Assembly (NCBI GenBank): GCA_965206845.1
Contig: OZ242221.1
Coordinates: 320,001-384,000 of the forward strand
Length of the DNA stretch: 64,000 bases
Reading direction: 5' to 3'
From: Cenarchaeum sp.
Lineage (GTDB): Archaea; Thermoproteota; Nitrososphaeria; Nitrososphaerales; Nitrosopumilaceae
The translations under genes and the position numbers were made by a program. The notes beneath the pieces are model-generated. The model saw only the letters and a program-made list of their open reading frames with translations, had not been told where the DNA came from and made no database searches. Every line of letters begins with the position of its first letter. Within the stretch, counting starts at the first letter, position 1. This document shows positions 13,050 through 41,915 of this stretch, in pieces.

Positions 13050-14442
13050 TAGTAGTGGCCACAATGATCCGATCACCTAGCCAGAAAAACTGCAAGTTTC
13101 TGTAATGTTGCAACCCCGTTACCCACACTGACCGTCTCAAGCCAGATCTGCCGATCCAAATTCGAAAGATACTGATCCGGGAAGATTGACGCCATTTTGT
13201 GAAGCCAGAAAGCGATTGCGGGAACACCCGAGAAGGCGGATGCGCGCGGCTGGAGTCCGGCACCGCGTTCATGCCGGGCGTCAGCGAGAAGAGGCTGGAA
13301 AAAGCGGCACGAAGGGAGAAGGACAAGTGCGCAAAGTTCAGGCTCTTGGCGTGCCTGGGCAGGAAGAAGGACCACAGCATACGCAGGATATCCAGGGATC
13401 TGAAAACCGCCTACTCGACTATCCGCGACTGGCTGCTGCGGATGCGCGACCGCGGACTGAAGGGCAGGTTCAACGCGAGGCCCAAGGGGCGAAGAGCCAG
13501 GCTCCCCCTCCAGATCATCCGTACCGTGCGGCGCTGGCTCAAGAGGAGCCCGAAAAAGTGTGGCTTTGAGACCGGCTCGTGGCAGATGGACATGGTAACC
13601 GAGATGATCCGGAAGGAGTTTGGCGTAACCGTCAGGGCGCGCACGCTGCGCAGGTGGCTGCGCAGGATCGGGTTCTCTTGGAGAAAGGACAGGTACGTCC
13701 CGTACAGGTCAGTCTCCAAAGAGAGGCAGGAGGAGTTCAAAAGGGAGGCAGGGGAGCGCGCGGCCCAGAGGCGCGCGGACGGTATGACCGTCTTTGCCGA
13801 GGACGAGGCCGCGGTCCAAAGATCCCAGAACCCCGCCTACGGGTGGAGGCCGACCGGGGGGCGCGAGCAGGTCAGGGCAAGCTTCTCAAGGGAGTCTGTC
13901 AGGATATTCGGCGCGATGTCCCAAGACGAGCTGCGAATAAAGATCGTGGAGTCGACGAACTTGGAGGCGTTCCGGGAATTCCTGGAGGAGATCCGCAGGG
14001 ACCGTCCGCGGTTATTCATGGTCCTTGACAACGCCTCCTACCACAAGTCGAAGGCTGTCAGGGAGTACGTGGAGTCCGCCGGGGGCGACGTCGAGCTGGA
14101 GTTTCTCCCGCCCTACACTCCGCAGCTGAACCCTGTCGAGACCGTGTGGAGGGACCTGAAGAAGAGGCTTGCCGGCAGGTTCTTCCGGTCGCTCGACGAG
14201 CTGAAGGCGGCGATAACCGCAATCCTTGAGCGCGAGATGGGCAACAGGCTCAAAGGCTATCTTGTAGCATAATCAAACTTGCCTGTACAAATACACGACT
14301 CTGCACTCCAATAGCGTACGACAGTCGCCCGTTCCAGCATGTAATCCAGAAAAATTGAAGGACGTGGAGAATAATGTCACATGGTGGTCAGTGCTTAGCA
14401 GCATTTTTCGTCAAAATGAGCGGATTGTTCTGGCCAGTACTA
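13050..14442 (+). mobile_element. IS630-family element copy A (left arm of composite transposon)
   Basis: TIR TAGTAGTGGCCACAA / TAGTACTGGCCAGAA; flanked by CGCA on both sides. Confidence 0.88.
13199..14272 (+). CDS. IS630 family transposase (intact)
   Basis: FAEDEA, VLDNASYHKS, LPPYTPQLNPVETVW; start may be ATG 13271. Confidence 0.92.
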   Translation: MKPESDCGNTREGGCARLESGTAFMPGVSEKRLEKAARREKDKCAKFRLLACLGRKKDHSIRRISRDLKTAYSTIRDWLLRMRDRGLKGRFNARPKGRRARLPLQIIRTVRRWLKRSPKKCGFETGSWQMDMVTEMIRKEFGVTVRARTLRRWLRRIGFSWRKDRYVPYRSVSKERQEEFKREAGERAAQRRADGMTVFAEDEAAVQRSQNPAYGWRPTGGREQVRASFSRESVRIFGAMSQDELRIKIVESTNLEAFREFLEEIRRDRPRLFMVLDNASYHKSKAVREYVESAGGDVELEFLPPYTPQLNPVETVWRDLKKRLAGRFFRSLDELKAAITAILEREMGNRLKGYLVA

Positions 14443-14495
14443 CGCATAATCTCTAATAAGGACGTAAAGCGTACCGTTTGTTGTAGGAATAGTCT

Positions 14496-15071
14496 ATGAA
14501 AAAAAAGACAGTTGGTATAATGACCTCAGTGATTATAGTTGTAGGAGTATTAGGAATGTTTGTCTGGCCAAATCCTGTAATACAAAATCCAAGCTTTGCA
14601 TGTGCTTTAACTGAAGGGAATCCACAAGGCCCTTACTATATCTCAGGAGCGCCAAACAAAGAGAGACTTGGAGAATCACTTGAAGGACAAAAACTAATAA
14701 TTTCTGGGCAGGTATTAAATCAGAACTGTGATCCAGTACGCGAAGCAATAGTTGACGTTTGGCAAACTGATTCAAACGGGAATTACAATTTTGAAGATTT
14801 TACACTTCGTGGAAAAATAAAGGCAGATGAGCGTGGTCAGTATAAACTTGAAACCATACTTCCTGGTAAATATTCAGAAGCTGGAGTTATGCGCCCAGCA
14901 CATATTCATGTAAAGGTCTCAGCTCCTGGTTTGCTATTGCATACTACCCAGCTTTATTTTGAGGGAGATAAAGACTATGACTTTTTTGTAAAACCTTCTT
15001 TGATTTTGAAATTAGATGAAAAAGATGGAACAAAGTATTCTGAATTTGACTTTGTTATTTTTACTCCTTGA
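14496..15071 (+). CDS. intradiol ring-cleavage dioxygenase-like protein with N-terminal TM anchor
   Basis: QGPYY, VDVWQTDSNGNY, TILPGKY, RPAHIH, TTQLYF (Tyr/His iron ligands); AT-rich. Confidence 0.88.
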   Translation: MKKKTVGIMTSVIIVVGVLGMFVWPNPVIQNPSFACALTEGNPQGPYYISGAPNKERLGESLEGQKLIISGQVLNQNCDPVREAIVDVWQTDSNGNYNFEDFTLRGKIKADERGQYKLETILPGKYSEAGVMRPAHIHVKVSAPGLLLHTTQLYFEGDKDYDFFVKPSLILKLDEKDGTKYSEFDFVIFTP

Positions 15072-15146
15072 TGAGTTTGAATACACATTTGACATGAACT
15101 GCTAATGACAAAATGTAGGTTTCAGTTTGTGATTGGGTCTTTACCT

Positions 15147-16493
15147 CAGTAATCCCAGATGTGCTCACGGAGCCACGGGATCTGGCGGTGGCTCGGGCTG
15201 GATCGTAATATTCTGATAGATTGCTATTAGCGTGGCAATTTTCATATACAGCTGCGTCACCGGAAGGACTCCGCCACACAGCTTCAGAAAGCTTGCCAGC
15301 TGCGCGTTTACCAGCGCCCATGCGTTAAACAGCGTCAGCGAGTACAGAAAGCAGAAAAGCCTGGCAGGCCTATTGCTGCCGAACGACTTTGCCCTGGCGT
15401 TCTCTACCAGTCTGTAGCATGTCTCGATGGTCCACCTTTTGGAATATTCTTCCACATCCACCCACGGGGCATTGGTGGCAAACGCAATGTATCGATCTTC
15501 CGGCGCATCTGCCTTCTTCGCCTTCTTGTCCCCGTTCTTCGTCCTCTCACTTTCTTTCCTTACTCTCTTCTTCTTTGTTATGATCATGTGGTACTGAACC
15601 GTTACCTTGTCAGAATTCGTCATGTCGGATTTTGAGATGGGGCCGAGCGTCTTGGCCACGAACTTGCGCAGCGAGTCTTTCACCCTACTGGTTCTGGTGC
15701 ACGGCATCAGGTACTCAAGGCTAAGGCGCTCAATCTCGGATATCGAGTTCACTGAAAAGAAACCCCTGTCAACCAGGATCAGTCCCAGCCTGGATCCGAC
15801 GGCGGAGACGTTTTCTAGGCACAAATTGATGATTCTACGCAGGGATTCGTGCACGGATGAAGACTTGTCCATGTATAGGGCCGCAAGGATAAGCCGCGAT
15901 TTGGAGTTGACGCACTGCGCCGTGATGTACGCCTCGAATCTGTTGGTGCCGCTCTTGCGCTCGCCACCCCTCAGGTCAGAGCCAAGTTTCTTGCTGTGGC
16001 ACGGTATCAGGTGCATGTCGATGGCCACATCAAGCACATCAGGCAACCTGCCAAGCAAGCAAATCTCATCCAGCTGTGCCCTTACCGCCTGGTTAAAAGT
16101 CTCAAGCGCCTTGCCCTCGTCCGTCTTGGACAGGATATCGCGAAACCACTCGCCGCTTGGAGAATGGCGCGAATATCTTGGATTCTCGATGGGCTGCGCC
16201 GTGATTTCTCTCATGACGAGACTGCATCCGCCGACCGAAGTGTCAAGCATCGCGGCATGCAGCATGCCGGCGTTAAAGTCGCTTGCTCCATATGTCGCGT
16301 TGTACCTTTTGGAGACCTCGGCGGACGGCACGATGCTTTCCCTCAGCATCTTCTCAACAGATTCATATATTTTGCCGTTGTTCATCATATCACGTCTCAG
16401 GCGATCTTTTTGGTAGTACACAAGGATCGTCTGGGCGCGCCCTCATTGATCTGTTTGCATTAGGTGCCAGATCTGGCACATCTGGGATTACTG
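15147..16493 (-). mobile_element. ISH3-like element (intact)
   Basis: 18-bp perfect TIR CAGTAATCCCAGATGTGC; 5-bp TSD TACCT at 15142-15146 and 16494-16498. Confidence 0.9.
15165..16421 (-). CDS. ISH3/IS4-like DDE transposase
   Basis: VAIDMH, LVDRGFFS, YSKRWTIETCYR. Confidence 0.88.
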   Translation of the reverse strand: MYYQKDRLRRDMMNNGKIYESVEKMLRESIVPSAEVSKRYNATYGASDFNAGMLHAAMLDTSVGGCSLVMREITAQPIENPRYSRHSPSGEWFRDILSKTDEGKALETFNQAVRAQLDEICLLGRLPDVLDVAIDMHLIPCHSKKLGSDLRGGERKSGTNRFEAYITAQCVNSKSRLILAALYMDKSSSVHESLRRIINLCLENVSAVGSRLGLILVDRGFFSVNSISEIERLSLEYLMPCTRTSRVKDSLRKFVAKTLGPISKSDMTNSDKVTVQYHMIITKKKRVRKESERTKNGDKKAKKADAPEDRYIAFATNAPWVDVEEYSKRWTIETCYRLVENARAKSFGSNRPARLFCFLYSLTLFNAWALVNAQLASFLKLCGGVLPVTQLYMKIATLIAIYQNITIQPEPPPDPVAP

Positions 16494-16771
16494 TACCTAA
16501 TCACAAAGCGCCCACCAATCGATATAATCGATAAAGTATTCACACGAGTATGAGAATTAAAGATTACTGAAGCATACTATTTTTTAGTAATGAATTGTTA
16601 ATTATGCCTGCGGAAGCTGATTTGAGGTTAAGACCAAGATGACCTCGATGGCGATTCAACACTCCACTTTGCCACTCTCAGTTTCCGCAAATTAATCTAG
16701 TTAACATTTGATATGAACTGTTAATAAAAAAATATAGATCTGTTATATTTCTAAAATAGCTATTAGAAAAT

Positions 16772-16876
16772 ATGAAAATACATTGTGAATGTGAAATCTG
16801 TGATCATTTTATTGCTCAAGAATGCATAATGAATGACTGCGATTGTTGTGTAAATTTTCACATGCGTTCTAGATAA
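16772..16876 (+). CDS. 34-aa Cys/His-rich small protein (putative metal-binding)
   Basis: MKIHCECEICDHFIAQECIMNDCDCCVNFHMRSR; TATA-like ttatat about 25 bp upstream. Confidence 0.55.
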   Translation: MKIHCECEICDHFIAQECIMNDCDCCVNFHMRSR

Positions 16877-16905
16877 TCTATAGTTAGATTACAAAAGATT
16901 TTGAA

Positions 16906-17706
16906 TTATTTTCTTATTTCTAATAGAATATTCTCATCATGCCATTTGATTTGCTCTAAATCATCAAAATTTTTCTTGATATTTTGTTGAAATATTTCTA
17001 GAGATTCATCAAAGATTTCTTTATCGTATAGGGCAAAGGTGGAATAGTGATTATTCTCTGCTTGAGCTACTAGTCTATCAAGACTAGATGTTCTAGAATA
17101 TCCAAACACCCTGGTGGAGTGCATATTCATGTCTGCATTTTGTATGTACTGTTTTAATTCATCCAACTCATACAAACGATCCTCTATATCTGCAAATAAT
17201 GGAAAGTGCTCTCCCCATATACTCCTAAAATTTTGATTTTTTAGTCTAGTGTAGATAAAGAGATGTCCATCATCTTTGAGTGCTCTTAGTGATTCAGACA
17301 AAAACTTTGGAACATTAAAGTGGTGTATTGCATTAAAGGTAACGATGCAATCCATTGAATTATTATCTAATGGAAGACGGTTTGCATCCCCCAGTCTTAC
17401 ACAAAAGTTTGTTGTGTTTTGCTCTATAAGATAATATTCAAGAGATTCTAACATTTTTTCATTATAATCTACACAGTGAATGTAAAATGAATCATCAAAG
17501 CATCTCAAAAACTCTAGGGAATATCGACCATCACCGCAACCAATATCTGCCATGCTAATTTTGGATTTTTTTTTTAGTTTGTCTTTTATGTGTGAAATTG
17601 GTTTTGTATCAAGTGTTCTTACACTTCGGTATTTTGAGGCAATAGCTGAAAAGTGGGCATACATATCTTGTTTGTTAAAATTAATTTCATTTTCAATATT
17701 TGACAA
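16906..17706 (-). CDS. class I SAM-dependent methyltransferase
   Basis: ADIGCGDG, GDANRLP, AIHHF, LKDDG; AT-rich. Confidence 0.9.
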   Translation of the reverse strand: MSNIENEINFNKQDMYAHFSAIASKYRSVRTLDTKPISHIKDKLKKKSKISMADIGCGDGRYSLEFLRCFDDSFYIHCVDYNEKMLESLEYYLIEQNTTNFCVRLGDANRLPLDNNSMDCIVTFNAIHHFNVPKFLSESLRALKDDGHLFIYTRLKNQNFRSIWGEHFPLFADIEDRLYELDELKQYIQNADMNMHSTRVFGYSRTSSLDRLVAQAENNHYSTFALYDKEIFDESLEIFQQNIKKNFDDLEQIKWHDENILLEIRK

Positions 17707-17740
17707 TGGTAAACATACCGGTTCATCTCATATGAATGCA

Positions 17741-19131
17741 TAGTAGTGGCCACAATGATCCGATCACCTGGCCAGAAAAACTGCAAGTTTCTGTAATGTT
17801 GTAGCCCCGCTACCCACACTGACCGCCTCAAGCCAGATCTGCCGATCCAAATTCGAAAGATACTGATCCGGGAAGATTGACGCCATTTTGTGAAGCCAGA
17901 AAGCGATTGTGGGAACACCCGAGAAGGCGGATGCGCGCGGCTGGAGTCCGGCACCGCGTTCATGCCGGGCGTCAGCGAGAAGAGGCTGGAAAAAGCGGCA
18001 CGAAGGGAGAAGGACAAGTGCGCAAAGTTCAGGCTCTTGGTGTGCCTAGGCAGGAAGGAGGGCCACAGCATACGCAGGATATCCAAGGATCTGAAAACCG
18101 CCTACTCGACTATCCGCGACTGGCTGCTGCGGATGCGCGACCGCGGACTGAAGGGCAGATTCAACGCGAGGCCCAAGGGGCGAAGAGCCAAGCTCCCCCT
18201 CCAGATCATCCGTACCGTGCGGCGCTGGCTCAAGAGGAACCCGAAAAAGTGTGGCTTTGAGACCGGCTCGTGGCAGATGGACATGGTAACCGAGATGATC
18301 CGGAAGGAGTTTGGCGTAACCGTCAGGGCGCGCACGCTGCGCAGGTGGCTGCGCAGGATCGGGTTCTCTTGGAGAAAGGACAGGTACGTCCCGTACAGGT
18401 CAGTCTCCAAAGAGAGGCAGGAGGAGTTCAAAAGGGAGGCAGGGGAGCGCGCGGCCCAGAGGCGCGCGGACGGTATGACCGTCTTTGCCGAGGACGAGGC
18501 CGCGGTCCAAAGATCCCAGAACCCCGCCTACGGGTGGAGGCCGACCGGGGGGGCGAGCAGGTCAGGGCAAGCTTCTCAAGGGAGTCTGTCAGGATATTCG
18601 GCGCGATGTCCCAAGACGAGCTGCGAATAAAGATCGTGGAGTCGACGAACTTGGAGGCGTTCCGGGAATTCCTGGAGGAGATCCGCAGGGACCGTCCGCG
18701 GTTATTCATGGTCCTTGACAACGCCTCCTACCACAAGTCGAAGGCTGTCAGGGAGTACGTGGAGTCCGCCGGGGGCGACGTCGAGCTGGAGTTTCTCCCG
18801 CCCTACACTCCGCAGCTGAACCCTGTCGAGACCGTGTGGAGGGACCTGAAGAAGAGGCTTGCCGGCAGGTTCTTCCGGTCGCTCGACGAGCTGAAGGCGG
18901 TGATAACCGCAATCCTTGAGCGCGAGATGGGCAACAGGCTCAAAGGCTACCTCGTCGCCTAAGCTGGGCCGCCTGGAAAAACCGCAATTTCGTACCGAAA
19001 CGGCGTACGGCAGCCGCGAGTTCCTTCATACATCCTTGAAAAATTGCAGGGCAATACGAATAATATCAGAGGAGGTCCGGTGTATTCCTGCATTTTTCGT
19101 CAAAATGAGCGGATTGTTCTGGCCAGTACTA
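17741..19131 (+). mobile_element. IS630-family element copy B (right arm of composite transposon)
   Basis: Same TIRs as copy A; flanked by TGCA and CGCA. Confidence 0.88.
17890..18962 (+). pseudogene. IS630 transposase with a 1-nt frameshift near 18553
   Basis: Lacks one C after the G-run relative to copy A; split into ORFs 17890-18630 and 18270-18962. Confidence 0.8.
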
Positions 19132-30775: not shown

Positions 30776-31960
30776 CTACACCGCACCTGCCCCCATGTCT
30801 ACCAGCTTGTTGTACGTGGCCACCTTGATCCTGACTTCCTGCACCATGTTCTTCCACTTTAGCGAGTACAGGTGCTCGCCGAACATCCGCTTGAATGCAG
30901 AGAACACGATCTCCACCAGCCATCTCTTGCCGTACTCGACCTTCTTTTTCCATTCCCCCCGGAAGCGCCTTTTCTCGTCGTCTGACATCTTCCACACGTG
31001 GCTGTCAGCAGATCCGCCAAGCTGCTTCCTGACTGCGATCCCCCATGCGTCGCCGGTCCCTTTCCCGCGCGCCGTCGAGTTTACCCTGAGCTTGATGCGC
31101 GAATTCACGTCGCGATCCCCGCATGCAGTCACGCTGCTTCTGGAAGCGTAAGCGGCATCTCCGTACAGGCAGCATCCTGCACCTGCCGGCCCGGCGGCGG
31201 AATCCTGAGATGTGATTCGTAATTAGCACGCAGGCACATTAGAGCACGATCTTTGGCATAATCATACGAAAGTTGCATGCTTTGGAGCGCACATCTGTAA
31301 GATTATGGGCATCGAAGACCCGATTCTTAATTGCGGATCATGTCTCTGCGCCTGACCTGTCCGTGCCGCAGCCTCCAAGGCCTCGTCAAGCAGCGGAATG
31401 AGCATCGGCGAGTCTCCGGTTCTGTCGTCGGTGACCTGGACTGCCAGTATCTTCTTCGTGTCCACGTCCACCATCACGTGGAGCTTGACGAATCCTCTCC
31501 GGACCTTCCATTTGTGCCTGATCCACTCTCCCCTGTTGTGCTGCTTTAGGCCAGTGGAGTCAACTGCGAGGCGGACCGGCACTGTCCCGCCGCCCGTGAC
31601 GGTAAACACGCTGCCATTCCTTTTGACCTCCAATGCCTGGAACCTTCTGTATATTGTGGTGTAACAAGGCGTGTCCCAGTCACCGAGCGTCTCAATCAGC
31701 ATTCCCTGCAGGTGCCTGTACGGCAGTCCTGTCATCGATTTTACCGCCGCCAGGGCCGCAAACAGTGACTCGGCGTACTGGAACGGCGCGCCCACCTTGT
31801 TCCTGTTAGCGGCCATCATCTCCTCGTGCCTTTGCGGATCGTCCCGGATGATCAACGCTTGGCCGCGCTTGACGTATTTCTCGTTGTCAGTCATCAGCAA
31901 TCTGTGTCTGATCCACTGATCCTTAGCTTTTTCGGTCTCGGACGGAGTGGGGATATTCAC
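30776..31960 (-). pseudogene. IS5 family transposase split by a MITE
   Basis: LAVDSTGLK, GEW, FVKLH, LYGDAAY, YGKRWLVEIVFS; frame is restored when the MITE is removed. Confidence 0.88.
31208..31345 (-). mobile_element. 138-bp MITE, copy 3
   Basis: Near-identical to copies 1 and 2, CTG on both sides. Confidence 0.9.
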
Positions 31961-32020: not shown

Positions 32021-32416
32021 ATGCCCAAATCTGCCCTATTGGCCAGGAGATACACCAAGGAACACGAATGGGTGGACACAATAGACGGCGGCATCATAGT
32101 GGGAATTACGGAATTTGCACAGGACCAGCTTGGCGATGTGGTCTCTGTCGAACTGCCCGAGGTCGGGGTCTCTTACAGGCAGAATGACGCCATGGCAATA
32201 ATAGACTCCGTAAAGACATCAACGGACGTATACAGTCCGGTGGATGGGCGGGTCACCCATGTCAACGAGAGCCTGCTGTCACAGCCTGAACTGATCAACA
32301 AGTCACCGCATCAGGACGGGTGGATTGTAAAGATGGTACCGGAGCATCGGGCCCAGTTGGACTCTATGCTCACCGAGGACCAGTACGACGAATTGGTTGG
32401 CAACGCTGAGAAATAA
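32021..32416 (+). CDS. gcvH: glycine cleavage system H protein
   Basis: YTKEHEW, GITEFAQDQLGDVV, DSVK (lipoyl-Lys), INKSP..DGW. Confidence 0.95.
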   Translation: MPKSALLARRYTKEHEWVDTIDGGIIVGITEFAQDQLGDVVSVELPEVGVSYRQNDAMAIIDSVKTSTDVYSPVDGRVTHVNESLLSQPELINKSPHQDGWIVKMVPEHRAQLDSMLTEDQYDELVGNAEK

Positions 32417-33673
32417 ATGAACTACATTCCACACACAGGGGAGCACATCTCGGAGATGCTCGCTGCAATAGGCTGCCGGACGGTCGACGAGCTTGTGCCA
32501 AGGCAGGTTCCCAGAGCGGCAAGACTCGACCTTGGAAAGTCCATGAGCGAGATGGAGATTGTATCGTACATCGAGTCGCTTGCCGCAAAGAACACACAGA
32601 CCAAGTGCTTCGCGGGTGGCGGCTCGTACGACCACTACATCCCCTCTGCCATAAGCCACATAGTTATGAGGGGGGAATTTCTCACCTCATACACCCCGTA
32701 CCAAGCAGAGGCAAGCCAGGGGGTGCTGCAGGCGCTATACGAATACCAATCATACATATGCCTGCTCACCGGAATGGATGTCTCCAACGCGTCACTTTAT
32801 GACGGAGCCTCGGCCCTGGCAGAGGCCGTGCTCTTGGCCCACTCGTACACAAAAAGAAGAGGCGTTTTCGTGGATGGGGGATTGAATCCCGCATACCTTC
32901 AGGTTCTCAGGACATACTGCGAGGGAACCGACATCTTCATTTCGGATGCCATAAACGACGATGTGGCATGCGTCATACAGCAGACGCCCGCCTTTGACGG
33001 TTCCATAAGGAATCCCACACACATGGCAGAGAAGGCCCACCGGAACGGATCGCTCTTCATAAGCTGCATATCGGATCCCACATCGCTGGCCATCATGCGT
33101 CCTCCCGGGGAGGCAGGGGCGGACATGGTGACGGGCGAGGGGCAGGCATTCGGAATACCCAAGAGCTTTGGGGGCCCGTATCTCGGATTCATGGCGGTCA
33201 GGAATAAGCTGACCAAGAAACTGCCCGGAAGGATAGTGGGCGCAACCCGGGACGGGTCTGGCAGGCGGGGATTTGTTCTTACGCTACAGGCAAGAGAGCA
33301 GTTCATCAGGCGGGAACGCGCCACCAGCAACATAACGACAAACCAGACGCTCTTGGCGCTGTCTGCGACCATATACCTGGCCCTGCTGGGAAGGACCGGC
33401 CTTCGGTCGGTTGCCCGTACCTCGTACCGTCGGGCGCACCGGCTACAGCAAATGCTGCACACAAGGGGGTTCCGCACCATAACGCCGGGCCCGTTCTACA
33501 ACGAGTTTCTTGTAGAGACGCCAAGGCCCGCGGCGGACATACTGGAACGCCTACAGCGGTACGGCATACTGGGAGGAATCGCAGTGGACGATTACAGGCT
33601 GCTTATATGCTGCACAGAAAAGAGCACCATGCCGGACATGGAGACGTATGCGAAGGAGGCCTCCTTGCAATGA
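32417..33673 (+). CDS. gcvPA: glycine dehydrogenase subunit 1
   Basis: FLTSYTPYQAEASQG, NASLYDG, FGGPYLG, LQAREQFIRRERATSNI. Confidence 0.95.
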   Translation: MNYIPHTGEHISEMLAAIGCRTVDELVPRQVPRAARLDLGKSMSEMEIVSYIESLAAKNTQTKCFAGGGSYDHYIPSAISHIVMRGEFLTSYTPYQAEASQGVLQALYEYQSYICLLTGMDVSNASLYDGASALAEAVLLAHSYTKRRGVFVDGGLNPAYLQVLRTYCEGTDIFISDAINDDVACVIQQTPAFDGSIRNPTHMAEKAHRNGSLFISCISDPTSLAIMRPPGEAGADMVTGEGQAFGIPKSFGGPYLGFMAVRNKLTKKLPGRIVGATRDGSGRRGFVLTLQAREQFIRRERATSNITTNQTLLALSATIYLALLGRTGLRSVARTSYRRAHRLQQMLHTRGFRTITPGPFYNEFLVETPRPAADILERLQRYGILGGIAVDDYRLLICCTEKSTMPDMETYAKEASLQ

Positions 33674-35115
33674 CCGCACGCGGCAGGACTGCGCCCACGA
33701 AGCTTATCTTTGATTACGGCCAAGCAAGCACCGGACACGTCCACACGGATGAAGACGGCATAAAAGACCGGTTTCCGGAACGGGAATGCCTGCCCCTGCC
33801 GGATGTGAGCGAGCTGCAGGTGATCCGCCACTATACGGAGCTCTCCAGAAAAAACTACGGAATAGACACCGGCATATATCCGCTGGGCTCGTGCACCATG
33901 AAGTACAACCCGCGCGTAAACGAGGATATGGCCAGGCTCCCCGGATTCGCAGGCATGCACCCCCGCGCCCCGCCGTCCCACGCGCAGGGCGCGCTGGAGG
34001 TCATGTGGGAACTGCAGGAGGCCCTCAAGGAGATCACCGGCATGGACGCGTTCAGCCTCCAGCCTGCCGCCGGCTCCCAGGGGGAGCTGCTGGGGGTCAT
34101 GATCGCCAAGAGATACTTTGCGGACATGGGCGAGAGGCGCACCCGAATAATAATTCCGGACTCGGCGCACGGAACGAATCCCGCTACTGCCGCCACATGC
34201 CGGTTCCAGACCGTAACGGTACGCAGTGACGAGCGCGGAAACATGGACTTGGACGGGTTCCGGCAGGCCATAGGGGACGACGTGGCCGTGGTGATGATCA
34301 CAAACCCCAACACGCTGGGGTTCTACGAGGAGCACCTTCAGGAGATAACGGATCTGTCAAGGAAGCACGGAACACTGCTGTACTGCGACGGGGCAAACAT
34401 GAACGCGATGCTGGGAATCAGCAAGCCCGCGGAGCAGGGGTTTGACATGATGCACCTGAACCTGCACAAGACGTTCTCCACCCCGCACGGCGGCGGCGGG
34501 CCCGGCGGGGGCGCCCTGGGAGTCAGATCATTCCTTGAGGAGTACCTGCCGGTGCCAAGGGTTGTGAGGCATGACAGCGGCCCCACGTTTGATCTAGACC
34601 ACAACCACGAAAAGAGCGTCGGCAGGATCCACTCGTTTTATGGAAATTTTGGAGTCATGCTCAGGGCCCTGGCGTATATCAAATCGTGGGGATCCGACAT
34701 TGTGAATGTCTCGGAGGCGGCCCTACTCAATGCAAACTACCTTCTGGGCCTCATAAGGGGGAGCTTTGACGTGCCGTATGACCGGCGGTGCGCCCACGAG
34801 TTTGTGGTGTCTGCAAGAAGGTTTGGCGAGAAGAGCGCCCTGAACATGGCAAAAAGGATGATCGACTATGGATTCCACCCGCCCACCGTATACTTTCCGC
34901 TCATAGTAAAGGAGGCCCTAATGATAGAGCCCACCGAGACGGAGAGCAAGGAGACGTTGGACCGGCTTGCCGGCGCGTTTTTAGCGATAGCGAGCGAGAT
35001 GGACCAGAATCCGGACATGCTCGACGGCGCGCCCCACACCACGGCCACCGGAAGGCTGGACGAGGTGATGGCCGCGCGGCGCCTTGACCTGCGCTGGAAG
35101 CCCCCGGAGGGATGA
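33670..35115 (+). CDS. gcvPB: glycine dehydrogenase subunit 2
   Basis: YPLGSCTMKYNP, SAHGTNPA, HLNLHKTFSTPHGGGGPG (PLP Lys), EPTETE; ATGA overlap with gcvPA. Confidence 0.95.
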   Translation: MTARGRTAPTKLIFDYGQASTGHVHTDEDGIKDRFPERECLPLPDVSELQVIRHYTELSRKNYGIDTGIYPLGSCTMKYNPRVNEDMARLPGFAGMHPRAPPSHAQGALEVMWELQEALKEITGMDAFSLQPAAGSQGELLGVMIAKRYFADMGERRTRIIIPDSAHGTNPATAATCRFQTVTVRSDERGNMDLDGFRQAIGDDVAVVMITNPNTLGFYEEHLQEITDLSRKHGTLLYCDGANMNAMLGISKPAEQGFDMMHLNLHKTFSTPHGGGGPGGGALGVRSFLEEYLPVPRVVRHDSGPTFDLDHNHEKSVGRIHSFYGNFGVMLRALAYIKSWGSDIVNVSEAALLNANYLLGLIRGSFDVPYDRRCAHEFVVSARRFGEKSALNMAKRMIDYGFHPPTVYFPLIVKEALMIEPTETESKETLDRLAGAFLAIASEMDQNPDMLDGAPHTTATGRLDEVMAARRLDLRWKPPEG

Positions 35116-35118
35116 CGC

Positions 35119-35424
35119 ATGGACCATGACCGGGACAGCACGGTTGTAACCGAACATACGGCAAAGCTGGAGAAGATGGTGAGAATAAGGCTGGACTATT
35201 CCCGCCAATCCCGCACGATAAGGTCCATAAGGATAACCGGGGACTTTTTCATGCATCCGGAGGACGCGATAGAGGGCCTGGAGATGGGGCTGCGGGGGGC
35301 AGAGCTGAAAAGGGACACCCTGAGGCAGAGAATCTCCTCGGCCCTTGCCGGTACCCGGTGCTTTGGGTTTGACGAGGAATCGCTGGCGGGGGCAATATTG
35401 GATGCGGGAGGCGGTGCGCCATAA
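35119..35424 (+). CDS. lipoate-protein ligase C-terminal subunit (LplB-like)
   Basis: IRITGDFFMHPEDAIEGLE. Confidence 0.8.
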   Translation: MDHDRDSTVVTEHTAKLEKMVRIRLDYSRQSRTIRSIRITGDFFMHPEDAIEGLEMGLRGAELKRDTLRQRISSALAGTRCFGFDEESLAGAILDAGGGAP

Positions 35425-36155
35425 GGTTTGAGCGCATCAAGATACTGGAGACCGGCTTTGGCACAGGCCCGTGGAATATGGCCGTCGATGAGTGCCTCCT
35501 TTACAGGTATGGCGCCTCCGGGGACACCGTTTTACGGATATACGGTTGGTCCCGGCCATGCATAACGATAGGCTACTTTCAGGGAGCGCGCGAGGAGGTT
35601 AATCTGGAACGGTGCGAGCACAGCCGGGTGGATGTTGTAAGGAGAATCACCGGCGGGGGAGCGGTGTTTCACGATATGGAGGTTACATACTCGCTGGTCA
35701 CCGGGAGGTTTCCTTCAGACATAATGGCATCATACCGGGGCATATGCGACATGGTAATATCGGGGCTGGGCCGCATGGGTTTGGACGCATCGTTCTCCCC
35801 GCTCAACGATGTCACCGTAAAGGGGAGGAAGGTCTGCGGCAATGCCCAGACAAGAAAGGGTAGCGCGCTGCTGCAGCACGGCACCATACTGCTGGATGTG
35901 GATGTGGAAAAGATGTTCTCGCTGCTCAACGTGCCCACCGCAAAGATACGGGACAAGGCCATTGCGGGTGTGAAGGAGAGGGTGGCGGGCATAGGCCGTA
36001 CATTCGGACAGACCACCGAGGCGCTAAAGAGGGGCGCGCAGGACGCGTTTGGCTGTGAGCTGGACACCATGTCGCTGTCCCGGGAGGACACCACAGAATG
36101 CAGGAGGATAATGGCTGCAAGATACTCCCAAGAGTCGTGGACGCACAGGAGATAG
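35421..36155 (+). CDS. lplA: lipoate-protein ligase A catalytic subunit
   Basis: NMAVDE, IGYFQ, RRITGGGAVFHD, KVCGNAQ, LQHGT; frame is open back to ATA at 35421. Confidence 0.9.
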   Translation: MRFERIKILETGFGTGPWNMAVDECLLYRYGASGDTVLRIYGWSRPCITIGYFQGAREEVNLERCEHSRVDVVRRITGGGAVFHDMEVTYSLVTGRFPSDIMASYRGICDMVISGLGRMGLDASFSPLNDVTVKGRKVCGNAQTRKGSALLQHGTILLDVDVEKMFSLLNVPTAKIRDKAIAGVKERVAGIGRTFGQTTEALKRGAQDAFGCELDTMSLSREDTTECRRIMAARYSQESWTHRR

Positions 36156-36601
36156 TGCACGGCGGCAGGGGCTGCCCTGCCCGGCAATGCCGGAAACCGC
36201 ACCTGCGGGCGCGCCCGCCACACGGGGGCCCGACCGCCATGCGCACCATGGCTGCGTCCCGCAGGCACGACACTGGCTGCAAGGAATGCAAAAACCAGCG
36301 GCTGGCAGAAAGAGGCAGATCCTCGCCCAACCCCATGCAAGGCGGTGCCGACAAATCGTGTAGATGCGCACCCGCACAGCGTCGGGGCGCCCGCGCCCCA
36401 AGAGATGCAGCAAAACGAGCCCCCCCCCCCGGCAGGTCGGGGGAAGGGCCACGGGCGGCCACAATGAGAAAACCCTGTGCCACAGAAATCCGATCCCAAC
36501 ACGAGAATCTGCGTACCGGAAGGGCGGTTGGCGTTCCGGGTGCCTTTGGCGGGCGCCGTCGCCCTCGCAATATTTATTGCATATTGTATTGACCCCCTTC
36601 C

Positions 36602-37921
36602 ATGTATGACGCCATAGTTGTGGGGGCCGGGCCCGGGGGCTACGCGTGCGCCATGAGCCTGGCCAAAGGCGGCGCCAGGGTGTGCATAATAGAGCGGAAC
36701 GGCCTTGGCGGCACCTGCACCCAGAGAGGATGCATCCCTACAAAGTATCTTCATGCGATGGGCGACTTGGCCCGGAGGACGAGGGCCGCAAAGAGGCACG
36801 GCATAGGGGACGGCACCATAAGCGTCAATTATGACATGCTGAGCGCCGGCATGAGGGGCACAATATCCAGGATTGCCTCGGGGATGCGGCTCCAGCTCCG
36901 ACAGCACAACGTGGACACAATATCCGGGGAGGCCAGCGTGATATCGCCCGACATTGTAGAGGTTGGCGGGGCGCGATACGAGACCCGCAATGTGGTGCTG
37001 GCGACAGGGAGCGGGCCCAAGACCGTCGATTTGGCAGGATATGACACGCTTACCACCGACTCCGTGTTTGAGATGCAGAGTCTCCCCGAATCCATACTGG
37101 TCATAGGAGGAGGGTATAGCGGATGCGAGTTTGCGTCCATACTGAATGCCTTGGGCTGCAGGGTGTGGCTGGCCGAAGCGCAAGGATCCCTCCTGCCTGG
37201 GCAGCCAAAGGTGGTGGGGGATACAATAGAAAAGTACATGAAGCTGGACGGCATATCGGTATTCACCGGCTCCACGGCAAACGCACACGACGGCCATATT
37301 GCGGTGGGGAATGACGAGATAGACCCCGAGGCCATACTGGCCTGTGTGGGAAGATACCCGGTTCTGGACGCAGACCGGCTCGATATGCTGGGCGTCAAAT
37401 ATACCTACAGGGGGATAGCCGTGGATGCAAGAATGCAGACCAGCGCAGACAGGATATATGCGGTAGGCGACGTTACTGGGGTATACGAGCTGGCGCATGT
37501 GGCCACGCGTCAGGGGGAAGTCGCGGCGCAGAACATGCTGGGCCGACACACCCAGATAGACTACACCACAGTACCCTACTGCGTGTTCACGTACCCAGAG
37601 GTGGCCATGGTGGGAAGGCTGGAGGGCCAGGCGGCCACGGTGCAGATGGCCGCCAGTGCAAAGGCAAACTGCCTGGGGCAGACCCGGGGGTTTGTCAGGG
37701 TGTATGCCAGAAACGGTACACTGCGGGGGGCGCTGATAGTGAGCGCGCACGCCAGCGAGATCATAGGCGAGGCGGCGCTGGCCATAAGGATGGGCCTCAG
37801 ACCCCAAGACGTGGTCGACACCATACACGCGCACCCCACCCTGCCGGAGGCCCTTGCCGACGCGGCGGCCACCGCAGCACGCATGCAGGAGGACGCAGAG
37901 TCGTGTCCGGGGCCAGAATAG
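36602..37921 (+). CDS. lpdA: dihydrolipoamide dehydrogenase (GCS L protein)
   Basis: GAGPGG, GGTCTQRGCIPTK redox disulfide, YAVGD, HAHPTLPE. Confidence 0.92.
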   Translation: MYDAIVVGAGPGGYACAMSLAKGGARVCIIERNGLGGTCTQRGCIPTKYLHAMGDLARRTRAAKRHGIGDGTISVNYDMLSAGMRGTISRIASGMRLQLRQHNVDTISGEASVISPDIVEVGGARYETRNVVLATGSGPKTVDLAGYDTLTTDSVFEMQSLPESILVIGGGYSGCEFASILNALGCRVWLAEAQGSLLPGQPKVVGDTIEKYMKLDGISVFTGSTANAHDGHIAVGNDEIDPEAILACVGRYPVLDADRLDMLGVKYTYRGIAVDARMQTSADRIYAVGDVTGVYELAHVATRQGEVAAQNMLGRHTQIDYTTVPYCVFTYPEVAMVGRLEGQAATVQMAASAKANCLGQTRGFVRVYARNGTLRGALIVSAHASEIIGEAALAIRMGLRPQDVVDTIHAHPTLPEALADAAATAARMQEDAESCPGPE

Positions 37922-38829
37922 GGATAGAGCTGGGCATACGGGCCCCCGCAAAGGCCGTGCGGAGGGCGGCCGGACTGGCAGGATCTTATGCGGGATACTT
38001 TCTGGTTCCCGAGACCCACCCGCACATAATGGGGGTCGATGCGCTGGACATGATACTGGAGGTATCGGCAGGGCTCCCAAGCCGCGCATGCGTGGGCACC
38101 GGCGTAATCAGCGTGTTTTCCCGCACCAGTGCGGACATGCTAGATCAGGCGCTCCGCATCCACTGCACCATGGGAGAGCGGTTCATCTTGGGGATCGGCA
38201 CAAGCGCGCCGGTTGTCGTAGAGGGCATGTGGAAGATGGAGTTTCGCAGGCCCGTATCCCGTCTTGTGTCATATACCAGGAGCCTCCGGGAACATGGGTA
38301 TACGGGGCCCATATACTGGGCCGCGGTGGGCGAGAGGACGCTGCGGCTCGCCATGCAGAACGCCGACGGCGTCATCTTCTTTCTCAAGCCGCGCTCACAC
38401 ATGCCAGGGCACGTCAGGGCAATCCGGGAGGGGGCGCCGCCGGAATTTGGCATAATGTCCATCATTCCCGTATCCATGAGTCGCGGCCCGGCGCATGACG
38501 CCCATATGGATGTAAAAACGACCGTTGCCGGATATCTGGGCGCAAACGGCTTTTATGGCGAGCCCCTGGCCGCGGCGGGGTTTGACGTTGCCAGCATACG
38601 GGACGCATACGTCAGAGAAGGGGTGCGGGGCGGGGCACGCATGGTGGGCGACCGCATGTTGGACGAAGTGCAGGCGGTATGGGGCACCCCCGAGTCCTGC
38701 GCCCGTGCGATACGCGGCATGGCCCAAAAGTCGGAGGCCGACGTGCTGGTTCTGGGCTTTGATCTTCCGCCTGACAGGTATGACGACGCATTCTTTGAGG
38801 GCCTGGACACGTTGCTGCGGGGGCTGTAG
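37903..38829 (+). CDS. LLM-class (luciferase-like) flavin/F420-dependent oxidoreductase
   Basis: VPETH, VGTGVISVFSR, GERFILGIGTS, PIYWAAVG, ADGV, GTPE. Confidence 0.82.
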   Translation: MSGARIGIELGIRAPAKAVRRAAGLAGSYAGYFLVPETHPHIMGVDALDMILEVSAGLPSRACVGTGVISVFSRTSADMLDQALRIHCTMGERFILGIGTSAPVVVEGMWKMEFRRPVSRLVSYTRSLREHGYTGPIYWAAVGERTLRLAMQNADGVIFFLKPRSHMPGHVRAIREGAPPEFGIMSIIPVSMSRGPAHDAHMDVKTTVAGYLGANGFYGEPLAAAGFDVASIRDAYVREGVRGGARMVGDRMLDEVQAVWGTPESCARAIRGMAQKSEADVLVLGFDLPPDRYDDAFFEGLDTLLRGL

Positions 38830-38833
38830 GCGG

Positions 38834-39910
38834 ATGGTGTGGCTCTCGGGCATTTCGGTGGTCAAGGCGCCGTTCCGCTATTCCATATCGGAGATTGTGG
38901 ACGACATGCTGCGGGACAAAATGGACAGGGAGGCAAGGGAGTATGCCAAGAGCCGGCTGGGCATTGATTACGTTTACAAGTCATACGATCTGTCAAGGGT
39001 GGACTTTGGGAGCGACCAGTATCTGGAGCCCCACATCGCGATGGACGGGCTGTACCGGCAGACCGCCAGCGCATCCCTGGGCGGAATGGACCGGTCCGGC
39101 ATAGGAATGCTGATTACCGTCAACGACAATCCCCAATACCTGGATCCGGCACCCGCCGCGAGTTTGGTGCCGCAGCTCTCTCTGCGCCACGACATAAGGG
39201 CGCAGAACCTGCAGGGGCTTGCGTGCTCGGCGCTTCCGGAGTCCCTTCTGAACTCGGCGGGGCACTTTGCCATGGGCGGCAGGGGGGACGTGCTACTAGT
39301 CATGGGGTCCGGCTATACGGAGTGGTTTCTGGACAGGATAAAGCAGATCAAGCACGTCACAAGAAAGAGCCGGGGCGACTTTTACAGTATGATATACTTT
39401 CTCATATTCAGCGATGCCGCCGCGTCGGCCATAATATCGTCAGAACCGGACGGGGCGCAGGTGCGCATAGACCCGCACAACGTGGTCGTGTCAAGGAGCG
39501 CAAGGCCCGCCCCGGCGGCCACACTGAAGATGTCGCCGGACAGCAGATGCAGGGTGATATTTGACATGAGCCTAGACCCCCGGGGCCTGCGGGACGACAT
39601 TGTGCGTTTGGCCGCCAGGAGCCTCATGCGGCTGCAGAGGGCCATCCCAGAGGAGATAGAGATATTCGGCATACACACAGCGGGAAAAAAATTTGTGGAC
39701 TCGGTGGCCGAAGGGTGCAATCTGGACCCCTCAAAGATACGCATGAGCTATGACATGATGAGCAGCACGGGCAACATGGGCGCCCTCAGCTCCATACAGT
39801 TTGTAGACGAATGCATCAGGCGGGATGCAATATCCAAGGGCGGCATGGGCTGCTTCATAGACTACGGTTGGGAGGGCGCGGGCGCCTTTGCCTTTGAGAG
39901 GACATCATAA
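38834..39910 (+). CDS. FabH/type III PKS-like condensing enzyme (thiolase fold)
   Basis: Cys-His-Asn triad motifs: QGLACSAL, FSDAAAS, IHTAG, TGNMGALS. Confidence 0.75.
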   Translation: MVWLSGISVVKAPFRYSISEIVDDMLRDKMDREAREYAKSRLGIDYVYKSYDLSRVDFGSDQYLEPHIAMDGLYRQTASASLGGMDRSGIGMLITVNDNPQYLDPAPAASLVPQLSLRHDIRAQNLQGLACSALPESLLNSAGHFAMGGRGDVLLVMGSGYTEWFLDRIKQIKHVTRKSRGDFYSMIYFLIFSDAAASAIISSEPDGAQVRIDPHNVVVSRSARPAPAATLKMSPDSRCRVIFDMSLDPRGLRDDIVRLAARSLMRLQRAIPEEIEIFGIHTAGKKFVDSVAEGCNLDPSKIRMSYDMMSSTGNMGALSSIQFVDECIRRDAISKGGMGCFIDYGWEGAGAFAFERTS

Positions 39911-40804
39911 TGCAGTAGGGCGCATGCCCCGGCAGCCCGATACAATATCCGATATGTCCGAGGCCCGAAAGGAGCTCCGCACAAAGGGCCCGGCCTCCAC
40001 ATGCAGGAACCCCATGTCATACAGCATGTGTTTTAGATGGCCGAACCTCTCAGGATGTATGTACTCTTTGACCGGAAGGTGCCGTGCTGAAGGCTGCATG
40101 TACTGGCCCAGCGCAACAAAGTCCACTGCGGATTTCCGGAGGTCTGTGGCGGCCTCAAGTATCTCGCCTGTGGACTCGCCTAGCCCCAGCATTATGGATG
40201 ACTTTGTAAATATTCCGGGATGCCTCTTTTTGGTGTGGCGCAAGACCTGCAGTGACTGGGAGTAACCCGCTCGGCGGTCCCGGGCCTGCGGGCTGAGCCG
40301 GCGCACGGTTTCTATGTTGTGGCCCACCACATGGGGCCCCGCATCGGCCACCGCATCTATCAGGACACGGTCGCCTGCAAAGTCCGGAATCAGCGACTCC
40401 ACTATGGTATCGGGGCACCGGTGCCGTATGTGCCGAATGGTCTCTGCAAAATGCCCCGCCCCGCCGTCGGGAAGATCGTCCCGGCATACCGACGTTATCA
40501 CCGCGTACTGAAGGCCCAGGTCCCGTATTGCCCCGGCCACGGCGCCCGGCTCCCGCACATCCGGGGCCCCGGGCCTGCCGGTATTCACGTCGCAGAACCC
40601 GCAACCCCGGGTGCAGGTGTCGCCCATTATCATTATGGTGGCAGTACCGGTGCCCCAGCACTCGGCCACATTCGGGCACGATGCCTCCTGGCACACCGTA
40701 TGCAGATTGTGCCTCTTGATGGTCCTTCGCACGTTGGCGTATGTCTCGCCCGAGGGCATCCTCGTCTTCAGCCAGCGCGGATGTGCGAGAGTAGGGCCGC
40801 CCAT
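39905..40804 (-). CDS. lipA: lipoyl synthase
   Basis: TVCQEASCPNVAECW, GDTCTRGCGFC, HNIETV, KSSIMLGLGE, GQYMQP, VRSSF. Confidence 0.96.
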   Translation of the reverse strand: MGGPTLAHPRWLKTRMPSGETYANVRRTIKRHNLHTVCQEASCPNVAECWGTGTATIMIMGDTCTRGCGFCDVNTGRPGAPDVREPGAVAGAIRDLGLQYAVITSVCRDDLPDGGAGHFAETIRHIRHRCPDTIVESLIPDFAGDRVLIDAVADAGPHVVGHNIETVRRLSPQARDRRAGYSQSLQVLRHTKKRHPGIFTKSSIMLGLGESTGEILEAATDLRKSAVDFVALGQYMQPSARHLPVKEYIHPERFGHLKHMLYDMGFLHVEAGPFVRSSFRASDISDIVSGCRGMRPTAL

Positions 40805-40853
40805 GCCCTAGGCTTAATCAAGACATATCTATAATGGTAACGCCCCGTATGCA

Positions 40854-41915
40854 ATGAGAACCGTATTCTACGGGCGACACCGCAAGCTGGGCGCAAAGAT
40901 TGTGGACTTTTATGGCTGGGAGATGCCCCTCCAATACTCGGGGATCATTCAGGAGCACAAGGCCGTCCGAGGCAGTGCGGGCCTCTTTGATGTGTCACAC
41001 ATGGGGCGTTTCAAGATACGCGGTCCGGATGCCCAAGAGCTGATACAGCGCATCATAACAAACGACATACGCCAGGTGGCAGACGGCCAATCGCTGTACT
41101 CGCCTATGTGCAACCACAACGGCGGGATAGTGGACGATGTCATAGTGAGCAGGTTGGGTCCGGGTGATTTCATCATGGTGGTGAACGCGTCCAACAGGAC
41201 AAAGGACATGGACTGGATAATGGCCAGTGCAGACATGGGCCGGTGCGAGGTAAAGGACGTTACGGCCGAGACGGCCCTGCTGGCCCTGCAGGGCCCGCAG
41301 TCGCCCCGCATACTCGAGGAGATGGGTGCGGACATGGGAGGTGTGAGACCCTTCCGGCTTGCGCGCATGGATCTGGACGGCGCGCCCTGCGTCATATCCC
41401 GGACGGGATATACCGGAGAGGACGGCTTTGAGTTGCTTTTTGATGGCAGGCACGTGCACCTCTGGGATGCGATATTGGAGGCCGGCGCCGCATGTGGCAT
41501 AATGCCCGCAGGCCTGGGGGCGCGCGACACCCTGCGGCTGGAGGCGGGGATGATGCTGTATGGCAATGATATAGACGAGGACACCACCCCCCTAGAGGCG
41601 CCCTTGGGGTGGACAGTAAAGATGGAGGCGGATTTCATCGGCAGAGATGCACTGCTCTCAAGGAAGATAACAAAGAGGTTGCGGGGCTTTATGGTTGTCG
41701 GTTCTGGGCGTGTGGCAAGAAAGGGCGACACCGTATATGACAATGAGAGGCCGATAGGCACGGTCACGTCCGGCGGCTTCTCCCCCACGCTGGGCAGGCC
41801 CATCGGATACTGCTACGTTTTGCCGGAGTACGGGGTGGGGGCCCACGTTGCAGTAGGCATTGGCAAAAAGAGATACAAGGCACGGTTGGCATCCACCCGG
41901 TTCTACAAGCGATAG
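40854..41915 (+). CDS. gcvT: aminomethyltransferase (GCS T protein)
   Basis: GWEMPLQY, GLFDVSHMG, ALQGP, SRTGYTGEDGFE, GLGARDTLRLEAG. Confidence 0.96.
   Translation: MRTVFYGRHRKLGAKIVDFYGWEMPLQYSGIIQEHKAVRGSAGLFDVSHMGRFKIRGPDAQELIQRIITNDIRQVADGQSLYSPMCNHNGGIVDDVIVSRLGPGDFIMVVNASNRTKDMDWIMASADMGRCEVKDVTAETALLALQGPQSPRILEEMGADMGGVRPFRLARMDLDGAPCVISRTGYTGEDGFELLFDGRHVHLWDAILEAGAACGIMPAGLGARDTLRLEAGMMLYGNDIDEDTTPLEAPLGWTVKMEADFIGRDALLSRKITKRLRGFMVVGSGRVARKGDTVYDNERPIGTVTSGGFSPTLGRPIGYCYVLPEYGVGAHVAVGIGKKRYKARLASTRFYKR

Follow-up and report, generated by a model that had tools for sequence, protein, structure and literature searches.

Gene organization of the glycine cleavage and lipoylation island

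The 64,000-nucleotide stretch of DNA analyzed here (the window; assembly GCA_965206845.1, contig OZ242221.1, positions 320,001 to 384,000) comes from the archaeon Cenarchaeum sp. and carries, at window positions 32021-41915, a 10-gene island for glycine cleavage and protein lipoylation. The island comprises lipA, gcvT, gcvH, gcvPA, gcvPB, lplB, lplA and lpdA, together with two further genes, LLM1 and KS, which are the subject of this study. LLM1 (37903..38829, + strand, GTG start) is predicted to encode an F420-type luciferase-like oxidoreductase (LLM), with a PF00296 match of 67.4 bits. KS (38834..39910, + strand, ATG start) is predicted to encode a condensing enzyme of 358 amino acids, a divergent relative of the type III polyketide synthases (PKS) and ketoacyl-coenzyme A synthases (KCS) with a Cys131-His281-Asn314 triad. 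The first-pass annotation of this DNA had described the two genes as tightly coupled to their neighbors, and the coordinates bear this out as first read: LLM1 overlaps lpdA by 19 bp, a gap of 4 bp separates LLM1 from KS, and KS abuts lipA.

The remaining genes cover both glycine cleavage and the attachment and maturation of lipoate. The lipoyl acceptor is encoded by gcvH (32021..32416, + strand; PF01597, 133.5 bits), the translation of which contains DSVKT, which we take to be the lipoyl-lysine motif. gcvPA (32417..33673, + strand) and gcvPB (33607..35115, + strand) were named from synteny and from conservation in related loci, and gcvPA also from its length, its position and its paralogy to gcvPB. 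The small subunit of lipoate-protein ligase is encoded by lplB (35119..35424, + strand; PF10437, 26.4 bits; NF053749, 52 bits, below the cut-off of 65) and the catalytic subunit by lplA (35478..36155, + strand; PF21948, 159.2 bits; TIGR00545, 166 bits, below the cut-off of 280). lpdA (36602..37921, + strand; PF07992, 187.5 bits; PF02852, 67.8 bits) encodes dihydrolipoamide dehydrogenase (L protein). Convergent with KS lies lipA (39905..40804, - strand; PF04055, 56.9 bits; PF16881, 38.6 bits), encoding lipoyl synthase, the translation of which has the motifs CX3CX2C, CX4CX5C and RSSF. It is followed by gcvT (40854..41915, + strand; PF01571, 318 bits; TIGR00528, 351 bits, above the cut-off). In the Pfam scan, the catalytic domain of LplA, LplB, LipA and the lipoyl acceptor GcvH thus were all found to be encoded within the island.

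Two local features set the window and the Cenarchaeum-like loci apart from other related loci. LpdA of the window ends in an additional stretch of about 23 residues that has a counterpart at L001-L005, which are Cenarchaeum-like, whereas alignments to the more distant loci end at residue 416 of 439; the 19-bp overlap between lpdA and the start of LLM1 is due to this C-terminal extension. The spacer between lplA and lpdA (36156-36601) is about 450 bp long, which is specific to the Cenarchaeum-like clade, compared with about 45 bp in Nitrosopumilus-type loci. An open reading frame in this region (orf164; 36098-36592) was considered as a gene and rejected. It had no Pfam or NCBIfam match and showed weak similarity in only 2/5 close relatives, and the region was treated as spacer.

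The LLM1-KS pair is a fixed part of the island

A neighborhood comparison had been suggested in the first-pass annotation as a check on whether the pair is recurrently linked to lipoate genes. This comparison revealed strong linkage, and the opposite outcome, homologues unlinked to lipoate genes, was not what was found. Full or partial island synteny was observed in 26 related loci. Among loci on genome contigs, 21/23 with a KS relative carry all ten island genes; of the remaining two, one (L017) is cut at a contig end and the other (L009) has LLM1-KS alone. Island synteny was observed in 4/6 metagenome loci, the other two being too short to tell. A genome of family f5 has the order LLM-KS, lipA (- strand), gcvT ... 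lpdA, and in a second f5 genome two contig ends carry LLM-KS and KS-lipA, respectively. In 27/27 loci, the LLM stop codon and the KS start codon are separated by -4 to +6 bp. Pairwise divergence of KS correlated with that of LLM1 at an r of 0.97 and with that of the other island genes at an r of 0.89-0.90.

The three gene orders (Nitrosopumilus type, window type and f5) can be derived by rotating a single circular order in which every gene keeps its orientation, as seen when the window is compared with L007 and L031. The LLM1-KS pair therefore moves with the island, and the rotated orders suggest movement via a circular intermediate, tandem duplication or end-to-end transposition of the block. 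In Nitrosopumilus-type loci, KS is followed by core genes, which in the Cenarchaeum genome are located at 532 kb, so the edge of the island falls directly after KS. At the left edge of the island in the window, just before gcvH, there is an open reading frame for a DDE transposase (31262..31960, - strand; PF13737, 48 bits; PF01609, 38.6 bits).

In order to determine how the pair is distributed, 301 genomes of the class, each at least 80% complete, were searched for KS, lipA and LLM1. The KS profile matched in the window genome (G000), in 13/191 genomes of its own family and in 2/4 genomes of f5; one of the own-family matches (G185) is a paralogue of 24% identity that lies outside the KS family, in a genome without lipA. 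Orthologues of LLM1 (E<=1e-100) were found in exactly the genomes that have a KS family member, with a fragment in G142. lipA was present in the window genome, in 12/191 genomes of its own family, in 2/4 of f5 and in 21 genomes elsewhere (f3, 3/43; f4, 4/4; f6, 1/1; f7, 4/8; f8, 8/10; f9, 1/1). All genomes with a KS family member (15/15: the window genome, 12/191 of its own family and 2/4 of f5) had both lipA and an LLM1 orthologue, and the pair was found without lipA in none of the 301. One of the 12 own-family genomes (G114) is unpublished; without it, the own-family count is 11/11. The pair occurs in eight genera.

In one genome, the pair has decayed with the island. At L033 (G142:C1:1158000-1177999), KS, LLM, lpdA and lipA are fragments with stop codons, and gcv genes were not detectable in the 20 kb of this locus. 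The other sampled species of the same genus (G186, 96% complete) had no KS, lipA or LLM1. The ratio of nonsynonymous to synonymous substitution rates (dN/dS) among three close relatives was 0.12-0.19 for KS, 0.22-0.32 for LLM1 and 0.12-0.21 for the gcv genes. KS and LLM1 are real genes under purifying selection, and the pair is a fixed, integral and selected part of the island.

Short, near-identical contigs scattered over the island, some of them inside LLM1 and KS, were present in four runs of one study, the RNA nature of which is only guessed. Contigs of this kind cannot show transcripts, and no conclusion on expression is drawn from them.

Sequence and predicted fold of KS

Pfam analysis of KS returned only subthreshold matches, to ACP_syn_III_C (26.2 bits; cut-off, 26.6) and Chal_sti_synt_C (18.1 bits; cut-off, 27), and no match to Chal_sti_synt_N or ACP_syn_III. 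The NCBIfam models for FabH scored 15-20 bits against cut-offs of 249-285. The closest sequence in the PDB was Pks11 (E, 5e-7), and the alignment places C131, H281 and N314 of KS on its catalytic residues. These three residues are invariant in 16/16 members of the KS family and in 18/18 sequences when distant relatives are added, which upholds the earlier observation that a Cys-His-Asn triad is retained. The Phe of the FGDG-type motif also is kept. The family has invariant motifs of its own, WFLDRIKQ and DYGWEG.

The KS family is small and isolated. A search of 1.84 billion representative sequences with the KS profile yielded 208 matches at E<=1e-3, 41 at E<=1e-10 and 17 at E<=1e-30, and the family profile had no match (0) among PDB sequences at an E of 1e-5. 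Apart from the cluster of the family itself, a search of the ESM Atlas recovered just generic clusters of ketoacyl synthase III (KAS III) and type III PKS. All loci that emerged from the metagenome scan (profile A3) were of the core type. Distant type III PKS-like genes were present at six loci in other Thermoproteota, with about 20% identity to KS; tblastn detected no LLM1-like gene beside any of the six, and no LLM was found in the scanned flanks of two of them, from f44. In these two f44 loci (L055 in G498 and L056 in G478), the distant PKS-like gene adjoins a transcription factor B (TFB) gene, and gcvP or gcvH lies 1-7 kb off on the other strand, a nearness that we judged to be coincidental.

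The AlphaFold2 (AF2) model of KS had a pLDDT of 89 and a pTM of 0.90. The best 50 Foldseek matches to this model were all type III PKS (TMq, 0.74-0.80). A structural search against representatives likewise ranked type III PKS first (Z, 35-36.5; root mean square deviation, 2.6-3.0; 332-339 residues aligned), followed by plant KCS6 (Z, 35.1), OleA (33.6), FabH and BioZ (31-32) and the thiolases (near 21). The modeled fold and the retained triad suggest that KS is a divergent member of the coenzyme A (CoA)-using branch that includes chalcone synthase (CHS) and KCS, and that it keeps the decarboxylating triad. The earlier label of a FabH/type III PKS-like enzyme can be kept in its second half. KS is not a FabH: it falls below the Pfam and NCBIfam cut-offs, its Z score to FabH is lower, and its genome has no acyl carrier protein (ACP; see below). 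Prediction of a complex between KS and LLM1 scored 0.00, which gives no verdict and was accorded no weight either way.

LLM1 and its paralogue LLM2

The PF00296 score of LLM1 is well above the cut-off of 27.9 bits. All NCBIfam matches (9/9) were to F420-class or Mer-type LLM families, each far below its cut-off. A profile built from 16 LLM1 orthologues was used to search the PDB, where Mer accounted for 6/7 matches (best E, 1.3e-25). The AF2 model of LLM1 (pLDDT, 90.4) was compared using Foldseek, and among the matches listed, those through rank 21 were all F420-dependent LLMs (Mer, KvPepI and FGD1), with top TM-scores of 0.75-0.77 for Mer; FGD2 followed at ranks 23-24 and flavin mononucleotide (FMN) luciferases lower. 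Sequence and model together point to LLM1 being an F420-type reductase or dehydrogenase that fits none of the named subfamilies.

After the LLM1 orthologues, the best matches to the LLM1 profile were to a paralogue, LLM2. In the window genome, LLM2 is the nearest relative of LLM1, with 27.7% identity (E, 4e-25), and a third LLM is far more distant (E, 0.012). LLM2 lies outside the window in a cassette on the - strand (G000:C1:1590653-1593933, equivalent to L063:10653-13933) consisting of an NTP-transferase, LLM2, a thiolase (PF22691/PF00108) and a DUF35-type protein (zf-ChsH2/OB_ChsH2_C). LLM2 was directly upstream of the thiolase gene in 19/19 genomes examined, which were drawn from f1, f2, f3 and f5, some with the island and some without it; the DUF35 protein escaped detection by tblastn in three of the 19 and the NTP-transferase in one. 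A quick tree with one distant outgroup only placed LLM1 and LLM2 as sister clades (Shimodaira-Hasegawa [SH]-like support, 98). The coupling of an F420-type LLM to a Claisen condensing enzyme is a repeated arrangement in ammonia-oxidizing archaea. That two paralogous F420-type LLMs each lie upstream of a different Claisen condensing enzyme argues that what the LLM reduces is the product of the condensation.

In one genome (G153; L059:9603-11745), the cassette is immediately adjacent to a bioB-like gene (radical SAM and BATS domains) and a class I/II aminotransferase gene (bioF-like). In the window genome, homologues of these two genes (G000:C1:1574841-1576938) and the cassette are some 14 kb apart. 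None was seen at L060-L062 in the fetched flanks of about 6-9 kb on each side of the cassette.

Genomic background

The window genome is a single contig that is 99.99% complete. The first-pass annotation had noted that no lipB or acp gene is present, and this is true of the entire genome: PF00550 (ACP) and TIGR00214 (LipB) each had 0 matches, with positive controls, which for ACP were positive in 11/14 genomes. With neither ACP nor LipB, the host would need another source of the C8 chain of lipoate. Genes for F420 synthesis are present, with CofD (313.6 bits) and CofH (464.9 bits) both above their cut-offs. A search with PF00364 found, beside GcvH, one other biotin/lipoyl domain, presumably a biotin carrier. 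A match to a MetF-type methylenetetrahydrofolate reductase (MTHFR) also was found above its cut-off.

A low-GC stretch, at window positions 14001-18000, has a GC content of 0.40-0.48, compared with about 0.60 in the rest of the window, and possibly is foreign DNA.

A possible route to the octanoyl precursor of lipoate

We propose, with something short of even confidence, that LLM1 and KS form a module for malonyl-CoA condensation and F420H2-dependent keto-reduction that supplies the C8 acyl chain used by LplAB and LipA. The pair would act as one condense-then-reduce unit of the mobile glycine cleavage and lipoylation island. In the first step, KS, as a CoA-dependent, decarboxylating enzyme, would use malonyl-CoA to lengthen a short acyl-CoA; given the carbon-fixation cycle of these autotrophs, malonyl-CoA is abundant in them. 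LLM1 then would reduce the 3-oxoacyl thioester with F420H2. Enzymes of the PepI and FGD2 type act on keto or hydroxy lipids and peptides, and the suggested keto-reductase role is based on these. Dehydration and enoyl reduction could be carried out by host enzymes of the 3-hydroxypropionate/4-hydroxybutyrate cycle, after which the C8 chain would be released, ligated by LplAB to GcvH and provided with sulfur by LipA. The gene anatomy, the family and fold assignments, the linkage and co-occurrence, the lack of ACP and LipB and the presence of F420 synthesis genes are observed here, and the substrates, chain length, helper enzymes and release step of this module are inferred. Of the octanoyl-supply pathway suggested in the first-pass annotation, the linkage, the F420 type of LLM1 and a CoA-type condensing role for KS are supported by the present results; the C8 product is a conjecture that we carry over from it, and linkage and co-occurrence are its only support.

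Several observations weigh against this proposal. A saturated C8 chain is beyond what one condensing enzyme and one reductase can make alone, and neither a dehydratase nor an enoyl reductase nor a thioesterase is encoded in the island. A MaoC-type dehydratase was not found in the window genome or in any of five others (5/5). MaoC also had been considered as a marker of the Sulfolobus type of fatty acid synthase; as it was found in none of these genomes, it does not separate f3 from f1. Enzymes with the KS fold usually make pyrones or resorcinols, as judged from PDB titles, and only Mer is strongly matched by the LLM1 profile among solved structures, which also fits a role in C1-pterin metabolism beside GcvT. 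The pair is absent from 21/36 lipA-positive genomes of the class. Three lipA-positive genomes of f3 lack it, and in the one examined (G221) a full island with LplAB has lpdA as its last gene and next to it, where LLM and KS would be expected, a gene for pyruvate-phosphate dikinase. The island thus can be complete without the pair, so the pair is auxiliary and not required for lipoylation everywhere. In the genome of L009 (G301), the pair and lipA are on different contigs. Finally, the genomes sampled are related to one another, and the co-occurrence counts therefore overstate the number of independent events.

The best of the alternatives, which we regard as rather unlikely though of real weight, is that the product of the pair is a small polyketide or 3-hydroxy acid unrelated to lipoate, such as a pyrone or resorcinol modified by LLM1, and that the pair merely rides in a mobile island. 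The Foldseek result favors it, since the type III PKS matched there are all product-forming, as does the f3 island that functions without the pair; the transposase at the island edge and the rotated gene orders show mobility. A hitchhiker, however, would be expected to be lost sometimes or to occur alone, whereas the pair is in every island genome of the window's own family and of f5, never without lipA, and decays together with the island in G142. The purifying selection on the pair is similar to that on the gcv genes, and fatty acyl starters are lacking in these archaea.

It is also conceivable, and in our view improbable, that LLM1 works like Mer, reducing with F420 the methylene-pterin that GcvT produces and so supplying methyl groups, and that KS has a separate role. 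This is consistent with the predominance of Mer among the PDB matches, with the TM-scores of the Mer structures and with a formate-tetrahydrofolate ligase gene that flanks the island in f5. The Mer equivalog models, however, scored only 26.6 bits (NF002619; cut-off, 276) and 17.4 bits (TIGR03555; cut-off, 348.7), and the genome already has the MetF-type match. A separate role for KS also is at odds with the near-constant junction between LLM and KS, with the movement of both genes as one block and with the sister paralogue, LLM2, being likewise coupled to a thiolase.

Two further readings are very improbable. In one, GcvH itself is the target of KS, which would either transfer acyl groups to it from acyl-CoA or lengthen a chain already tethered to it. 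In its favor are only the linkage to gcvH, lplAB and lipA and the presence of the KAS III-like acyltransferases ChlB3 and CerJ among the fold matches. Attachment, however, already is provided by LplA and LplB, and the triad Asn, which acyltransferase relatives often replace, is kept in KS and fits decarboxylative condensation. The elongation of a tethered chain, which the first-pass annotation had considered, is chemically unlikely from established enzymology: the octanoyl group is amide-linked to GcvH, Claisen condensation needs thioesters, and we infer that the tethered chain would be a poor substrate. The other reading, that the pair supplies a different acyl-derived cofactor precursor such as pimelate for biotin, has a precedent in BioZ, reportedly a KAS III enzyme dedicated to biotin precursor synthesis (PMC7645780 and PMC8024396), and recalls the bioB-like and bioF-like genes next to the LLM2-thiolase cassette in G153, but it hardly accounts for the distribution of the pair, since all these autotrophs need biotin and only 12/191 own-family genomes have the pair, and only with lipA.

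A wider version of the octanoyl-supply proposal is more speculative, and we consider it unlikely as it stands: ACP-less ammonia oxidizers might build the acyl chains of cofactors with dedicated CoA-based modules of a single design, in which the gene for an F420H2-dependent LLM reductase immediately precedes that for a Claisen condensing enzyme. LLM1-KS would then provide octanoyl groups for lipoate, and the universal LLM2-thiolase-DUF35 cassette would be an F420-dependent core of the fatty acid type, perhaps feeding biotin.

Relation to published work

The glycine cleavage system of these archaea is described in PMC7265257, PMC7848895 and PMC8397731, and, in the available text, the lipoylation genes are treated in PMC7265257 and PMC7848895. 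A literature search, the scope of which was article text and not supplementary gene tables, found no paper that connects this island with a condensing enzyme or with an LLM. The word "oxoacyl" is absent from the text of PMC7265257, PMC7848895 and PMC8397731, and "polyketide" is absent from that of PMC7848895 and PMC8397731. The accessible part of PMC8397731 calls the role of F420-dependent LLMs in these archaea unclear. So far, the pair is an undescribed part of a known island.

According to the portion of PMC10332631 available, lipoate assembly by Lpl and LipA draws on free octanoate, and what donates the acyl group in archaea without ACP is described there as unknown; the origin of the octanoyl group in such archaea also is posed as a question in the available part of a preprint on archaeal fatty acid synthesis (10.1101/2024.07.05.601840). 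The island offers a concrete candidate for this source, in the form of two small soluble proteins with known or guessable substrates (acyl-CoA, malonyl-CoA and F420H2). If the proposal is correct, the pair would be the first case in archaea of a chain elongation that is decarboxylating, CoA-based and F420-linked, and would be to lipoate what BioZ is to biotin. It would explain how the glycine cleavage island can become established in lineages without other lipoate metabolism, and it would bear on the use of glycine by deep-sea and sponge-associated ammonia oxidizers.

Comparison with known systems

The best fold matches of KS are Steely1 (2h84), Pks11 (4jao) and KCS6 (9lgy), with Z scores of 36.5, 36.3 and 35.1, respectively, and 332-333 residues aligned. 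KS shares with type III PKS and KCS6 the Cys-His-Asn triad and the FGDG-type Phe, and CoA substrates are plausible for it. It differs from them in that identity is only 13-18%, the Pfam CHS domains are below cut-off and its invariant motifs are its own. LLM1 shares the TIM-barrel LLM fold with Mer, KvPepI, FGD1 and FGD2/Rv0132c but is below the cut-off of every named subfamily and forms a clade of its own, sister to LLM2.

BioZ reportedly is a KAS III-type enzyme that makes the pimeloyl precursor of biotin in alpha-proteobacteria (PDB 6kue). It shares its fold with KS (Z, 31.4) and likewise is a condensing enzyme that stands alone, and, as is proposed for KS, it is devoted to the acyl chain of a cofactor into which a radical-SAM enzyme finally inserts sulfur. 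Unlike the proposed module, BioZ uses malonyl-ACP and the fatty acid synthase of its host, whereas the window genome is without ACP; KS also is nearer to type III PKS and KCS and is paired with an F420-type reductase.

The fatty acid synthase complex of Sulfolobus, in the part of its description available, consists of a ketothiolase (KT)/DUF35 unit, a short-chain dehydrogenase/reductase (SDR), a MaoC dehydratase and an enoyl reductase of the medium-chain dehydrogenase/reductase (MDR) type (10.1101/2024.07.05.601840). The same text presents the system as nondecarboxylating: no decarboxylating ketothiolase was found, and the use of malonyl-CoA by Saci_1114 was disproved (10.1101/2024.07.05.601840). 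As far as that description extends, the reductases there use NAD(P)H, whereas the KS of the island has retained the decarboxylating triad and has an F420-type LLM as its partner, in a genome in which MaoC was not found. On the same basis, the Sulfolobus system resembles the proposed module in being CoA based and ACP independent, with a condensing enzyme coupled to a keto-reductase, and the LLM2-thiolase-DUF35 cassette resembles its KT/DUF35 core, of which it may be an F420-linked counterpart.

The closest likeness to the island as a whole is the Lpl(AB)/LipA assembly pathway (PMC10332631), since LplA, LplB and LipA are encoded beside GcvH. The pathway, in the available portion of its description, names no octanoate source in ACP-less archaea (PMC10332631), and it is here that the island differs from it, by adding two candidate genes.

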